This document shows, piece by piece, positions 7,347 to 44,704 of a stretch of 64,000 nt of DNA. The stretch spans positions 4,283-68,282 of the forward strand of contig PLYC01000010.1 of NCBI GenBank assembly GCA_003151625.1. The letters are read 5' to 3'. This stretch comes from Candidatus Doudnabacteria bacterium (GTDB taxonomy: Bacteria > Patescibacteriota > Doudnabacteria > UBA920). The notes beneath the pieces are model-generated. The model was given only the letters and a program-made list of their open reading frames with translations, had not been told where the DNA came from and made no database searches. The translations under genes and the position numbers were made by a program. The first letter of the stretch is position 1; the number at the start of each line of letters is the position of its first letter.

Positions 7347-8057
7347 TTACTTAATGTCAAGTAAATTTTTATTATCAATCTCCCTTAAAACAGAATTTCT
7401 TTTTTTTATGTTTTTAATTTTATTTAATTCATTTTTAATTCTTGTGGCTGTCAAAGTTCCAATTAAATTTAAATATTTTTTAATGGCGTTTTCTGTTTGA
7501 ACATTCAATTTCAAATTATGCGTTTTGCTGAATCTTACCGCCCTTATAACCCTAAGAGGATCTTGTTTAATTCTAACTATTGGGTTGCCAATAAATTTGA
7601 GTTGGTTGGTCTTTAAATCGGCAAGACCTTTGTGATAGTCCAAAATTTTAGCAGATTTTGCGCTTAAGTATAGAGCATTTATGGTAAAATCGCGTCTTTT
7701 GCTGTCTTGCTTGGCTGTATTTACAAATGAGATTTTTGGGTATCGGCTCTTCCCATAATAATCCTTGCGGAAAGTTGTTATTTCAATGGAGAGGTTGTGC
7801 TCTGCGGCAATTATTACTCCAAATTGTTTGTTCCTTGCTTCGAATTTAATACCTGCCTGCTCAAGTATTTTAATAACTTGGTCAGGCGTGGCTTTGGTCG
7901 CGATATCAATATCTGTTATGGGTCTCTTTAATAATAAGTCCCTGACCATTCCGCCCACGTAAAAAGTTTGCGGAAAGTTGTCCACAAGTAAATTGTAAAT
8001 TTTTGTCCCAACTTTTTCTAATTCAGACCTTGGTCTATAATTTAGTTTTGCGTTCAT
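7347..8057 (-). CDS. cca: tRNA nucleotidyltransferase (CCA-adding enzyme, minimal class II form)
   Basis: Pol-beta nucleotidyltransferase head motif GGMVRDLLL..DIDIAT, plus RRDFTINALY. 236 aa. Confidence 0.7.
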   Translation of the reverse strand: MNAKLNYRPRSELEKVGTKIYNLLVDNFPQTFYVGGMVRDLLLKRPITDIDIATKATPDQVIKILEQAGIKFEARNKQFGVIIAAEHNLSIEITTFRKDYYGKSRYPKISFVNTAKQDSKRRDFTINALYLSAKSAKILDYHKGLADLKTNQLKFIGNPIVRIKQDPLRVIRAVRFSKTHNLKLNVQTENAIKKYLNLIGTLTATRIKNELNKIKNIKKRNSVLREIDNKNLLDIK

Positions 8058-8152
8058 AGAAGCAAAATTAAACGCGAAAGATTTGATTCGAGAAGATAAA
8101 TGCGAATTCGCGACAAGTTCGCGTTGATATTTCGCGTACTGCTTCGCTTCTA
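8057..8152. mobile_element. MITE-like ~95-nt element with terminal inverted repeats (copy A, cca-atpC spacer)
   Basis: tagaagcaaaattaaacgcgaaag...aatgcgaattcgcgacaagttcgcgtt...ctgcttcgcttcta; the ends tagaagc/gcttcta are inverted repeats. Confidence 0.55.
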
Positions 8153-8602
8153 TTCTTTAAACACACCCTCGCCGGTAATCGGCTGACGGCGATGGGAATG
8201 TTTGCGCGCGATGTTCAGCCGCGTTAAGCTCTGGTTTAAGCTGGCTGCGACTTTCGCGTATTCCTCGGAAGACATTTTTGTTTCTGATATGGCTTTTTGG
8301 GCGCGCTTAACCGCTTCTTCGGTTTTTTGGACGTCTATTTCGTAATGATGCTCTGCCGCGTCCGCCAAGGCCACGACCTGACTATTTGGTCGAACCTCTA
8401 TAAAACCGCCGGTAACATTAATAAAATGCTCTTTCCCGCCGGATTTTGCTACCAATTCCCCTGCTGTCAACGTCGCAACCAATGGAATATGCCCAGGCAG
8501 AATAGTGATCTGCCCCAAAGTCGTGGGGCACGATAAACTATCCAGTTCTTCTTTAAGAACGGTTCGTTCGGGGGTTACTAGTTGGAAATTTAACTTACTC
8601 AT
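8150..8602 (-). CDS. atpC: F1Fo ATP synthase epsilon subunit
   Basis: LVTPERTVL..ILPGHIPLVATL N-terminal beta-sandwich, then a C-terminal helical region. Last gene of the atp operon. Confidence 0.85.
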   Translation of the reverse strand: MSKLNFQLVTPERTVLKEELDSLSCPTTLGQITILPGHIPLVATLTAGELVAKSGGKEHFINVTGGFIEVRPNSQVVALADAAEHHYEIDVQKTEEAVKRAQKAISETKMSSEEYAKVAASLNQSLTRLNIARKHSHRRQPITGEGVFKE

Positions 8603-8607
8603 AGTTT

Positions 8608-8904
8608 TTATATCCCACTACCTTCGTTAAATTCTTGAACGTCAGTGGCTCCTAACTGCATCCAGATTCGCGTTATATCCGCGACGCTATTTATCCCCAG
8701 TTTTTTTCCAATGTTTAACCTGTGTGATTTTATGCCTTCAGGGCCCACCCTCAATATCTCTGCAATAGCTTCTCTTCCTTTACCGGCTGCTATCCATCTC
8801 ATTACTTGTTTTTCAAATGGAGTCAGTTCCTTAAAACCCTCTTCTTCGGTTTTAGAAACATACAAATCCGGCTTAACTTCTAAGTCCATTTTTACTCTAC
8901 CCAT
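8608..8904 (-). CDS. LuxR/GerE-family helix-turn-helix protein encoded between atpD and atpC
   Basis: LTPFEKQVMRWIAAGKGREAIAEILRVGPEGIKSHRLNIGKKLGINS matches the LuxR-type HTH. The track ORF begins at 8934 overlapping the atpD 3' end; the real start is probably the internal Met near 8904. Confidence 0.55.
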   Translation of the reverse strand: MGRVKMDLEVKPDLYVSKTEEEGFKELTPFEKQVMRWIAAGKGREAIAEILRVGPEGIKSHRLNIGKKLGINSVADITRIWMQLGATDVQEFNEGSGI

Positions 8905-8908
8905 AAAT

Positions 8909-10279
8909 TTATTTTTTAACTTGTTCAATTCCACCCTTCATATAAAATTCGCCCTCGGCTACGGAATCATACTCGCCATCCAAAATCATTTTAAACGCTT
9001 TTACTGTATCAGCGAGTTTAACAAATTCTCCTTTGCGGCCGGTGAAGACTTCGGCTACGGCAAAAGGTTGGGAAAGGAAGCGCTGGATTTTGCGGGCGCG
9101 TCCTACGGTAACCTTGTCTTCTTCCGGAAGTTCTTCCATACCTAATATGGCGATAATATCCTGAAGATCTTTATAGCGCTGCAATGTTTTTTGTACGCCG
9201 CGGGCGACGTTGTAGTGCTCAACGCCTACTATCAGCGGGTCTAAAATCGTTGAAGTGGAATCCAAAGGATCTACAGCCGGATAAATACCAAGTTCGGTTA
9301 ATGCGCGGGAAAGTACCACGGTAGAGTCCAAATGGGCAAAAGTTGTGGCCGGAGCAGGGTCGGTTAAGTCATCGGCAGGTACGTACACGGCCTGAACCGA
9401 GGTAATAGAACCGTCTTTTGTGGAGGTAATGCGTTCCTGTAATTCCCCCATTTCAGTGGCGAGTGTTGGCTGATATCCGACCGCGGATGGAATACGACCC
9501 AAAAGCGCGGATACTTCGCTGCCTGCTTGTGTGAACCGGAAAATGTTGTCTATAAACATCAGCACGTCCTGATGCTGTTCGTCGCGGAAGTATTCGGCCA
9601 TAGAAAGTCCGGACAAAGCTACACGGGCGCGGGCTCCCGGGGGTTCATTCATTTGCCCGAACACCATAGCCAGTTTTGGCAAAACGTTTGCGTCTTTCAT
9701 TTCGTGGTACAAATCGTTTCCTTCACGGGTTCTTTCCCCGACACCGGCGAATACCGAAACACCTCCGTGAGCCTTGGCAATGTTGTTAATCAACTCTTGA
9801 ATAATAACTGTTTTACCTACGCCGGCACCGCCGAACAACCCTACTTTACCGCCCTTTAAGATTGGGCAAATTAAATCTATAACTTTAATTCCGGTTTCCA
9901 GAATTTCGGTTTTGGTGTTTTGGTCGGTAAACTTTGGCGCCGGGCGGTGAATTGGGTATCTTTTGTCCGATGGCGGCGTTGGTTGGCCGTCTACAGCCTG
10001 CCCCAGCACGTTAAAAATGCGTCCCAGCGTCTCTTTTCCCACAGGTACGCTAATTAGAGCGCCTGTGTCTGTAACCTCTGTTCCGCGCTTTAAACCGTCG
10101 GTTGACGACATTGCAACCGTGCGAACGATGTTGCCCGGAAGTTGCTGCTGGACTTCCAGAGTCAGAGTATTTTTATCGCTGATAGCGACTTCCAGCGCAT
10201 TATAAATTGCCGGCAATACATCTTTAAAATGCACATCCACTACCGGCCCTATTATCTGACTGATTGTACCTTTGTTCAT
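8909..10279 (-). CDS. atpD: F1Fo ATP synthase beta subunit
   Basis: [17 protein letters not shown] Walker A, DELSEED-like region, 456 aa. Confidence 0.95.
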
Positions 10280-43459: not shown

Positions 43460-43641
43460 GAATTTATTTTTAGAAATTCAGCCTAACCGGAGTACCGGCT
43501 TATTGGAACAAAGTCCAAGGGTAGATCGACAACGATAGAAATTAATTTGTAAAAGACTAACAACTCTTCTAACGGCTAGCAATTATTTCCAATAGTATAG
43601 CATAAAATTAGCTTAATTGTCAAATACCCCTACATAAAATA

Positions 43642-43665
43642 AATCCCCCTTATTTGAGAGGGATT
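43642..43665 (-). terminator. Terminator hairpin downstream of secF
   Basis: Minus-sense aatccctc-tcaaata-agggggatt followed by a T-rich run. Confidence 0.45.
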
Positions 43666-43707
43666 CAATATCCTAATATCTTAATTTCCAAATATCGGTA
43701 ATATCTT

Positions 43708-44601
43708 TTATACTTGCTTTGTTTTCCACTTTTGCCAGAGGACTAAGACAGGGCTGGCAATAAATATTGAGGAATAAGTACCAACAATAATACCAATAAA
43801 CAAGGCAAAAACAAAGTATCTGATAGTGTCGCCGCCAAATAAGAGGAGGCTTAACAAAACAAACAACACGGTTAAGCTGGTGTTTAAAGACCTGACCAGT
43901 GTTTGGCTAATGCTGTGGTTAACAACAAACTCAATGCTTTGGCCGGCGTAAACTCTTAAATTTTCCCGAATTCTGTCAAAAACGACAATTGTATCGTGAA
44001 CCGAGAAGCCTAAAACCGTAAGCATGGCGGTAACAAACAAACTGTCAATTTCCACACCTTTAAAATGTCCTAAAATTGAAAATGCGCCAAGTACAAATAG
44101 CAGATCGTGAATTAACGCAATTACAGCCGCCCAGCCAAAACGCCAGGATGTTACCGGCTTTGTAACTTTGCGAAAAGCGTAGCCGATATAAATAACAATG
44201 CCTAACGAAACGAATAAAAGCTGTAAAAATGCATCTTGCGTTAACTGCTTGCCAATTACCGGTCCAATTGAGTTATACTCGGTTTCTGTAAAATTTCCGG
44301 CTGCGGCCTGAATTTTGGCCAGCAACTGATCGTGCTGGTCTTTGCTCAAACTCTGGCTTTCAATAATTAAGCCGTTATTAGATGCCGTCTGAATTTGAAA
44401 ATTTCCAAGATTTTGTGACCTTACGGCATCCTGTACCTTGGCCACATCAACCGGCTGTTTAAACTGTAGTTGAACCTGGCTACCACCTTTGAAATCAATA
44501 CCCAATTTTAGATGATAAACGGAAAGTGAGACTATCCCAAAAATCAGAATAATCCCTGAAACACAAAAGAAAAATTTGTAATATTTTAAAATATTAAACA
44601 T
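43708..44601 (-). CDS. secF: Protein translocase subunit SecF
   Basis: 297 aa, SecF N-terminal TM plus periplasmic domain plus C-terminal TM bundle. Confidence 0.9.
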   Translation of the reverse strand: MFNILKYYKFFFCVSGIILIFGIVSLSVYHLKLGIDFKGGSQVQLQFKQPVDVAKVQDAVRSQNLGNFQIQTASNNGLIIESQSLSKDQHDQLLAKIQAAAGNFTETEYNSIGPVIGKQLTQDAFLQLLFVSLGIVIYIGYAFRKVTKPVTSWRFGWAAVIALIHDLLFVLGAFSILGHFKGVEIDSLFVTAMLTVLGFSVHDTIVVFDRIRENLRVYAGQSIEFVVNHSISQTLVRSLNTSLTVLFVLLSLLLFGGDTIRYFVFALFIGIIVGTYSSIFIASPVLVLWQKWKTKQV

Positions 44602-44617
44602 ATTTTTTAGAAGCGAA

Positions 44618-44704
44618 GTTAAATGCGAAAAAATTAATCGAGCGAAACAAACGCGAATTCGCGTTTAAATTCGCGTTGCAGAAGCGGCATTTTTTTCGCT
44701 TCTA
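44618..44704. mobile_element. MITE-like element (copy B, secF-secD spacer)
   Basis: tagaagcgaagttaaatgcgaaaa...acgcgaattcgcgtttaaattcgcgtt...cgcttcta. It shares the ends, the internal GCGAATTCGCG palindrome and the ttcgcgtt segment with copy A. Confidence 0.55.

Follow-up and report, generated by a model that had tools for sequence, protein, structure and literature searches.

Genomes of the Candidate Phyla Radiation (CPR) are tiny and gene-dense, and are thought to be poor in repeats. A 64-kb stretch of contig PLYC01000010.1 from Candidatus Doudnabacteria (the whole stretch analysed here, hereafter the window) holds two palindromic elements of about 95 nucleotides (nt), one between atpC and a cca-like gene and the other between secD and secF, and raises the question of what such elements are and how they come to lie between genes of this kind. 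We describe the two elements, copy A and copy B, as members of a family of palindromes built from GCGAA boxes (family 1), and place this family in a wider class of palindromes of the same build. The reading that we favour, with modest confidence, is that they belong to a mobile, non-autonomous palindromic family of about 95 bp that resembles miniature inverted-repeat transposable elements (MITEs) and REP elements. No relevant description of such repeats in Patescibacteria or Doudnabacteria was found in the literature on MITEs and palindromic repeats, and the family is previously undescribed.

Two copies of one repeat family

Copy A occupies positions 8057-8152 of the window (96 nt) on the minus strand, which is the sense strand of its neighbouring genes, exactly where an earlier note on this DNA had placed it. 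Its 5′ terminal repeat is TAGAAGCGAA (8143-8152, minus strand) and its 3′ terminal repeat TTTGCTTCTA (8057-8066, minus strand), the latter with one G.U-type deviation on the sense strand, and its boxes 4 and 5 form the central palindrome GCGAATTCGC (8102-8111). Copy B, also on the minus strand, spans 97 nt (44608-44704), with TAGAAGCGAA at 44695-44704 and TTCGCTTCTA at 44608-44617 as its 5′ and 3′ terminal repeats (both minus strand) and CGCGAATTCGCG at its centre (44652-44663). The earlier note had recognised a real copy here but began it at 44618, which is 10 nt late and omits the left terminal repeat (44608-44617). The common ends, internal palindrome, equal length and diverged body that it had reported are all seen in the two copies, which have in common 10-nt perfect or near-perfect terminal inverted repeats, TAGAAGC(G/A)AA...TTCGCTTCTA, and the central GCGAATTCGC, are of near-identical length, and show about 70% overall identity.

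A chance likeness of the two is ruled out, since a profile built from 21 copies found elsewhere, and so without those of the window, matches the window only at A (E = 5.5e-17) and B (E = 8.9e-17); the next-best match in the 64 kb has E = 0.19, and this search found no further family-1 copy there. That A and B are members of one repeat family is thus confirmed. Neither TAGAAGCRAA, with one mismatch allowed, nor CGCGAA is enriched as a single motif in the window, so that the signal lies in the whole arrangement.

Both copies lie tightly against their neighbours, all of which are encoded on the minus strand. Copy A wholly fills the gap between atpC (ATP synthase epsilon subunit, 8150-8602; Pfam PF02823/PF00401, ATP-synt_DE_N) upstream and the cca-like nucleotidyltransferase gene (7347-8057; Pfam PolyA_pol head domain) downstream: the atpC stop codon TAG (8152-8150) is formed by its first three bases, and its last base, an A, opens the cca ATG (8057-8055). 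Copy B is flanked by secD (44665-46161) upstream and secF (43708-44601) downstream, both named after annotated relatives. The secD frame enters copy B for 13 codons and stops within it at 44665-44667, and the secF ATG follows 6 nt past its other end. The claim that the copies sit precisely in operon gaps therefore holds for copy A, whereas copy B lies inside the 3′ end of secD and is not cleanly intergenic.

Anatomy of the family

On the sense strand the consensus of the family reads TAGAAGCGAA-N6-CGCGAA-N8-CGCGAA-N6-CGCGAATTCGCG-N6-TTCGCG-N8-TTCGCG-N6-TTCGCTTCTA. Each arm carries four GCGAA boxes about 12 nt apart and the arms are inverted around CGCGAATTCGCG, which gives eight boxes per element with start-to-start spacings of 12/14/11-12/5/12/12-17/11-12 nt. 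The terminal ends were partly imposed by the search pattern; boxes 2, 3, 6 and 7 were absent from the search patterns and keep their GCGAA/TTCGC core in 20-22 of 23 copies. The spacers between boxes vary almost freely, and conservation is limited to the boxes and the 10-bp ends, the terminal repeats TAGAAGCGAA/TTCGCTTCTA being complementary at ten of ten positions in 21 of 23 copies and carrying G.U-type deviations in the other two. The arms are asymmetric in that boxes 5 and 7, which belong to the right arm, are each followed by GTTTA, and in that the leading C of CGCGAA is kept in the left-arm boxes while its mirror base on the right arm is variable. All 24 copies known to us (see below) are alike in ends, centre and box order; they measure 90-98 nt, with one of 118 nt, and have no open reading frame (ORF) of their own and stop codons at their 5′ end.

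Distribution and position within operons

The search for further copies that the earlier note had proposed returned 22 in public contigs of Patescibacteria (Doudnabacteria-like), so that the window pair is not alone: 24 copies lie at about 18 independent loci in several genomes. A pattern scan of GTDB genomes gave three true matches: a metagenome-assembled genome (MAG) of Candidatus Doudnabacteria has one, and MAG CAZQFQ01, which bears the label Saccharibacteria, has two. Two other matches, in an Enterococcus (L003) and a member of the Saprospiraceae (L004), are without boxes and were rejected as chance. The same kind of scan of JGI metagenomes added 19 loci, mostly from one sample, and the profile search added the 118-nt copy (locus L010). 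Several copies may share a contig, with two in the 64-kb window, three on one 64.5-kb contig and two on a 60-kb contig. Relatives of the window's SecF and Cca, 72-100% identical to them, are annotated as Doudnabacteria or Patescibacteria, and the family is resident in Doudnabacteria-like Patescibacteria. Neither family-1 copies nor a parent element were found in viral contigs.

Every copy fills the space that separates an ATG from the promoter or stop codon before it; the stop codon is 0-6 nt away or is supplied by the TAG of the element. In 17 of 23 copies the ATG starts 4-9 nt past the element, and in two the element and the ATG overlap. The sites all belong to core operons: the junctions ssb-rpsR, rplR-rpsE, infC-rpmI, mreB-mreC, mreC-mreD and pilT-pilC, places downstream of serS, recO and yqeY and upstream of recF and greA, and the atpC-cca and secD-secF junctions of the window. 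At a divergent locus (L009), upstream of mreB, the element is preceded at a distance of 4 nt by a near-consensus promoter with an extended -10 (ATGACA-16-TGnTATAAT), and it makes up essentially the whole 5′ leader there. In the window the two copies lie on the operon sense strand with no promoter or terminator of their own: no terminator-like or promoter site was found on the sense strand of A or B, whose 3′ flanks are A-rich, and an intrinsic terminator, i.e., a GC-rich hairpin followed by a U-run, was rejected for both. Upstream of 45 gene starts in the window no motif like Shine-Dalgarno (SD) was found, the leaders being A/T-rich.

Presence and absence at the secD-secF junction

The secD-secF junction is filled in the window and in a relative (L029) that is 95% identical to it in nucleotide sequence over 20 kb, and the two copies differ by 1 nt. 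Other relatives have no element there: in L030 (92% SecF identity) the native SecD tail GVSKIKNHEQSES is followed by a 24-nt gap, and in L027 (81%) the tail GVSKIKNETSN is followed by a gap of 3 nt, while in L025 (93%) an unrelated palindrome stands after the native stop codon. In the window the SecD tail that follows GIS, RSEKNAASATRI plus the stop codon (44665-44703, minus strand), is encoded by copy B and stands in place of the native K-I/L-K... of the relatives. Excision of copy B with one TA kept yields GIS-K-K..., in agreement with the GVSK(I/L)K of the relatives. Copies are gained and lost in the short space that separates a stop codon (or promoter) from the start codon after it, and secD shows that a gain event, as read from these alignments, can clip the end of the upstream gene.

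Remnants of older copies adjoin complete ones at two loci, L019 and L010. Orthologous copies are not hypermutable, the two shared between the window and L029 differing by 1-2 nt. Across the roughly 220 kb of DNA from the loci, family ends occur as pairs about 85 nt apart, save for a few truncated remnants and one chance match in a coding region.

Sister palindrome families

In related genomes, orthologous junctions are occupied by palindromes that share the build of family 1 and differ in their boxes (ACTAAA, ACGAAT, TACGAA, CGCTGA). CGCTGA and CAAATATAC boxes are found at mreB-mreC and mreC-mreD, ACTAAT/ACGAAT boxes at the serS junction and ACTAAA boxes downstream of rpsR; the atpC-cca junction holds ACGAAT boxes with the centre ACGAATTCGT, and also ACTAAT/ACGAAT, and the junction between a sigma-factor gene and a DUF8128 gene holds TACGAA boxes in a 4+4 layout.

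The window itself carries three copies of a second family (family 2, TCTACTAAATACTAA...TTAGTATTTAGTAGA, with ACTAAA boxes), all on the minus strand and each shortly before an ATG, which the earlier note does not list. One (28297-28378; folding z = -10) ends 10 nt upstream of the murJ ATG; another (36017-36100) ends 6 nt upstream of the next ATG and is kept in L029 with 2 nt differences; the third (42310-42374), between the sigma-factor and DUF8128 genes, is replaced by a different palindrome, with ACTAA boxes, in the 95%-identical L029 and is absent in L030 and L025. Beside this swap, the last four sigma-factor codons hold five synonymous differences (window 42377-42390 against L029 12205-12225) on a background of 95% identity, a clustering that suggests an imported allele or a short recombination tract. 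A shorter relative of family 2 is also seen in the window at about 40890-40932, and family 2 occurs in L006 (4445-4540).

RNA folding and polarity

Both strands of the elements fold as long interrupted hairpins. In 15 of 24 copies the sense strand has the lower folding energy, with a margin that reaches 16 kcal/mol and that arises from mismatches among spacers and boxes which become G.U pairs on that strand only; the difference is not significant (p = 0.10). RNAalifold applied to the copies found invariant pairs only and no arm-to-arm covariation, and arms swapped between copies pair as well as native ones (-40.1 against -39.8 kcal/mol, p = 0.81), which indicates that the spacers do not covary. 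A search of Rfam 15 gave no match, either at the gathering score or at E <= 1.

With a leave-one-out profile, trained on the other copies as oriented by their genes and with orthologues excluded, the sense strand outscores the antisense strand at 17 of 18 independent loci (two-sided binomial p of about 1e-4). The margin is often 15-28 bits, and a simple motif count agrees. Copy A has the sense polarity (+11.6 bits), and the sole exception is copy B, ambiguous or reversed at -5 bits. Nearly all genes on these contigs point the same way, presumably that of replication, so that polarity with respect to transcription is inseparable from polarity with respect to replication; the divergent loci L009 and L011 are uninformative in this regard.

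Mobile element or host signal

What the earlier note had read as the signature of a MITE stands in several respects: the elements are short (below the limit of about 600 bp for MITEs), non-coding and dispersed, they have terminal inverted repeats, their sites are filled in some genomes and empty in others, and one of them has struck the tail of secD. Remnants of older copies and the occurrence of different families at one junction in related genomes also speak for mobility. No target-site duplication (TSD) is demonstrable, and no insertion sequence (IS) with these ends was found in the related DNA examined. Under the mobile reading, the boxes are probably the binding sites of a protein that moves or maintains the element, and insertion would take place at TA. 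The inserted element would be co-transcribed, giving an mRNA in which an interrupted hairpin of about 45 bp, predicted at -28 to -58 kcal/mol, would end some 5 nt ahead of the AUG. Its near-uniform polarity might stem from selection at the RNA level or from strand-specific, replication-linked insertion. Copies would survive only in stop-to-start gaps, because nothing else is dispensable in such compact genomes. Sister families of the same build with different boxes replace one another at the same junctions.

Several observations weigh against mobility. The only repeat that flanks the copies is the TA with which every one of them starts and ends, and which is part of the palindrome; TSDs, for which the earlier note had proposed to look, are not seen outside it, and pairs of filled and empty sites are too divergent for a footprint to be read. 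A transposase, or a longer element with the family ends, was found neither among the ORFs of the window nor in the gene table of L029 nor in the roughly 220 kb of loci, and a full-length IS, likewise named in the earlier note as something to look for, was not found in about 290 kb of related DNA. Typical MITE copies are alike along their full length, whereas here only boxes and ends are. At three junctions the boundaries of two families meet the stop and start codons within a base, a coincidence for which independent random insertion is not a ready explanation. The replacement at the sigma-DUF8128 junction comes with the clustered synonymous changes in the flanking codons and may be a case of allelic recombination and not of transposition. 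To move many box families, a genome of about 1 Mb would need many transposases, or one structure-specific enzyme. A simple MITE predicts neither eight strictly conserved boxes amid essentially random spacers, nor a polarity that matches the downstream gene at 17 of 18 loci, nor the exchange of one palindrome family for another at one and the same junction.

The polarity also counts in favour of a rival explanation that we consider unlikely, in which the elements are not mobile at all and serve the host as cis-acting RNA, i.e., as intercistronic or 5′-leader hairpins that would act as processing sites for a double-strand-specific RNase, as mRNA stabilisers, or in coupling or insulating translation where SD motifs are lacking. 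Such a role would account for their invariable position ahead of an ATG, on the strand that is transcribed and after a stop codon or transcription start, and for the better folding of the sense strand, by as much as 16 kcal/mol, in 15 of the 24 copies, and it accords with the lack of any SD-like motif before the window genes and with the presence of some palindrome at atpC-cca in all three relatives examined. The folding results nevertheless speak against this role: the boxes are invariant with no compensatory variation, the arms of a copy pair with each other no better than with those of another, the gap in energy between sense and antisense does not reach significance, and Rfam has no match even at the permissive threshold. 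Junctions of essential operons are empty in close relatives, and copy B, which disrupts the tail of secD, has the minority polarity. If the target were instead the DNA duplex, each element would be an array of eight operator sites for a sequence-specific host regulator, or for a nucleoid or segregation factor, set before selected genes. Boxes of 5-6 bp that are strictly conserved amid free spacers, their regular spacing of about 12 bp and the overall two-fold symmetry are what such an array would look like, but we regard it as improbable, given that the genes downstream (secF, cca, mreC, mreD, pilC, rpsR, rpsE, rpmI, recF, greA and others) share no function, that most copies lie within operons and not at promoters, and that near-identical genomes have gained or lost sites, or exchanged them for other box types. 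The strand asymmetry of the boxes, with CGCGAA kept on the left arm and the mirror base variable on the right, is likewise unexpected for symmetric duplex sites.

The alternation of short conserved repeats with variable spacers also recalls arrays of guide RNAs, whether TIGR-like or of box C/D type, in which the spacers would carry targeting information. TIGR-Tas systems have been reported from CPR bacteria; their arrays are direct tandem repeats of 5-15 units, with two alternating repeats of 8-12 nt and spacers of 9 nt, adjoin a tas gene with a Nop domain and end in a terminator (PMC12045711). We hold this explanation to be very remote for family 1, whose boxes are inverted around a centre, whose spacers measure 6-8 nt and whose units stand singly, scattered among housekeeping operons; no gene with a Nop domain was seen in the window.

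Mobility and use by the host might also be combined. It is conceivable, on a speculative note, that the class of box-repeat palindromes serves as gene "punctuation" in Doudnabacteria-like genomes, where each family would be recognised through its boxes by an undescribed factor, sequence- or structure-specific, that would both spread the element and use its transcribed hairpin, for instance by cutting polycistronic mRNA just upstream of start codons without SD pairing; the related boxes GCGAA, ACGAA, ACGAAT, ACTAAT and ACTAAA would then reflect the co-evolution of box and factor.

Whatever their nature, palindromic families occupy the stop-to-start gaps of operons that are among the most essential (ribosomal proteins, ATP synthase, Sec, Mre, IF3-L35). 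Even genomes with 95% identity differ in them through turnover, and they can change the C-terminal ends of proteins. If family 1 is mobile, an undescribed mobilisation system must exist in these reduced genomes; if it is used by the host, it bears on the processing of operon mRNA and on translation without SD motifs. In practice, the family is a strain-level marker, and it can mislead gene calling at the ends of genes, as with the false tail of 13 residues in SecD.

Comparison with known repeat elements

The families Correia, RUP, ERIC, REP, MIRU and REP2 are compared here by their general features. Correia/NEMIS of Neisseria, RUP of Streptococcus pneumoniae and ERIC/IRU of enterobacteria are TA-flanked palindromic MITEs that are co-transcribed with their neighbours. 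Family 1 resembles them in its size class (about 100-150 bp), in being non-coding with terminal inverted repeats and TA at the ends, and in forming dispersed, intergenic, strain-variable long hairpins transcribed within operons. It differs from them in having no known sequence similarity, in a body made of eight boxes of 5-6 nt with free spacers, in its near-uniform orientation to the downstream gene and in the swapping of sister families at one junction. To our knowledge there is no cognate IS for the GCGAA-box family, unlike elements of the Correia, RUP and ERIC type.

With REP/BIME and REPIN elements, which are mobilised by RAYT, the family has in common short extragenic palindromes in several sequence families per genome, turnover between species, conserved positions, the lack of an internal transposase, and hairpin-forming doublets of about 100 nt. 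A REP unit is an imperfect palindrome of 20-40 nt with a GTAG-type tetranucleotide, doublets of which are known as REPINs, and units flank the RAYT gene; in family 1 the arms are direct box arrays and not palindromic units, and neither a GTAG of REP type nor another conserved tetranucleotide is found in the flanks. No RAYT gene was seen in the DNA examined; whole genomes were not searched. The MIRUs of mycobacteria and REP2 of Neisseria meningitidis come closest in placement, being likewise intercistronic or directly upstream of start codons, in one orientation to transcription, and abutting or overlapping the stop and start codons on either side. Unlike family 1, MIRUs are arranged as direct tandem repeats and not as inverted-repeat hairpins, and contain small ORFs for coupling; REP2 carries a ribosome-binding site, whereas the host window of family 1 shows no SD at all. 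By structure the nearest of these elements are Correia, RUP and ERIC; REP/REPIN come nearest by population behaviour, and MIRU and REP2 by position and orientation. The eight-box architecture is not known from any of them.

A nearer comparison is offered by a classical MITE within the window itself (38705-38874). It measures about 170 nt, its 11-bp terminal inverted repeats GGACTTACGCG are perfect, and it is flanked by a TSD of 7 bp, CTAAATA; the 95%-identical L029 lacks it. Both kinds of element are short and non-coding and have terminal inverted repeats, but family 1 has box repeats and no 7-bp TSD. The clean duplication at this MITE means that ordinary MITE footprints are visible in this DNA, where the GCGAA-box family leaves none beyond TA.

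Other features of the window and its relatives

Some further features of the window were noted in passing. A group I intron match (Rfam RF00028, 66.9 bits) lies at 6526-6728 on the minus strand, in a 1.5-kb gap that also holds genes for tRNA-Asp and tRNA-Met. Between atpD and atpC there is a small gene for a helix-turn-helix protein of GerE/LuxR type (8608-8934, minus strand), an arrangement that recurs in L032. An intergenic region of 244 nt (19801-20044, minus strand) forms one long fold (-87.4 kcal/mol, z = -8.1 against shuffles). Since Rfam gave nothing for it at E <= 1, it may represent a small RNA that has not been annotated. A further 2.5 kb (54754-57300) is without a long ORF on the main coding strand; near its upstream end a short hpf-like gene appears to start (about 57170-57000), after a promoter-like site TGnTATAAT and a hairpin leader (57180-57237), and another palindrome of 100 nt lies at 56740-56842. 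In L029, an insertion of about 155 nt flanked by TTATTA (about 8172-8330) is found at the 3′ end of a Cu-oxidase_4 (YfiH-like) gene, of which the window (about 46268) is free.

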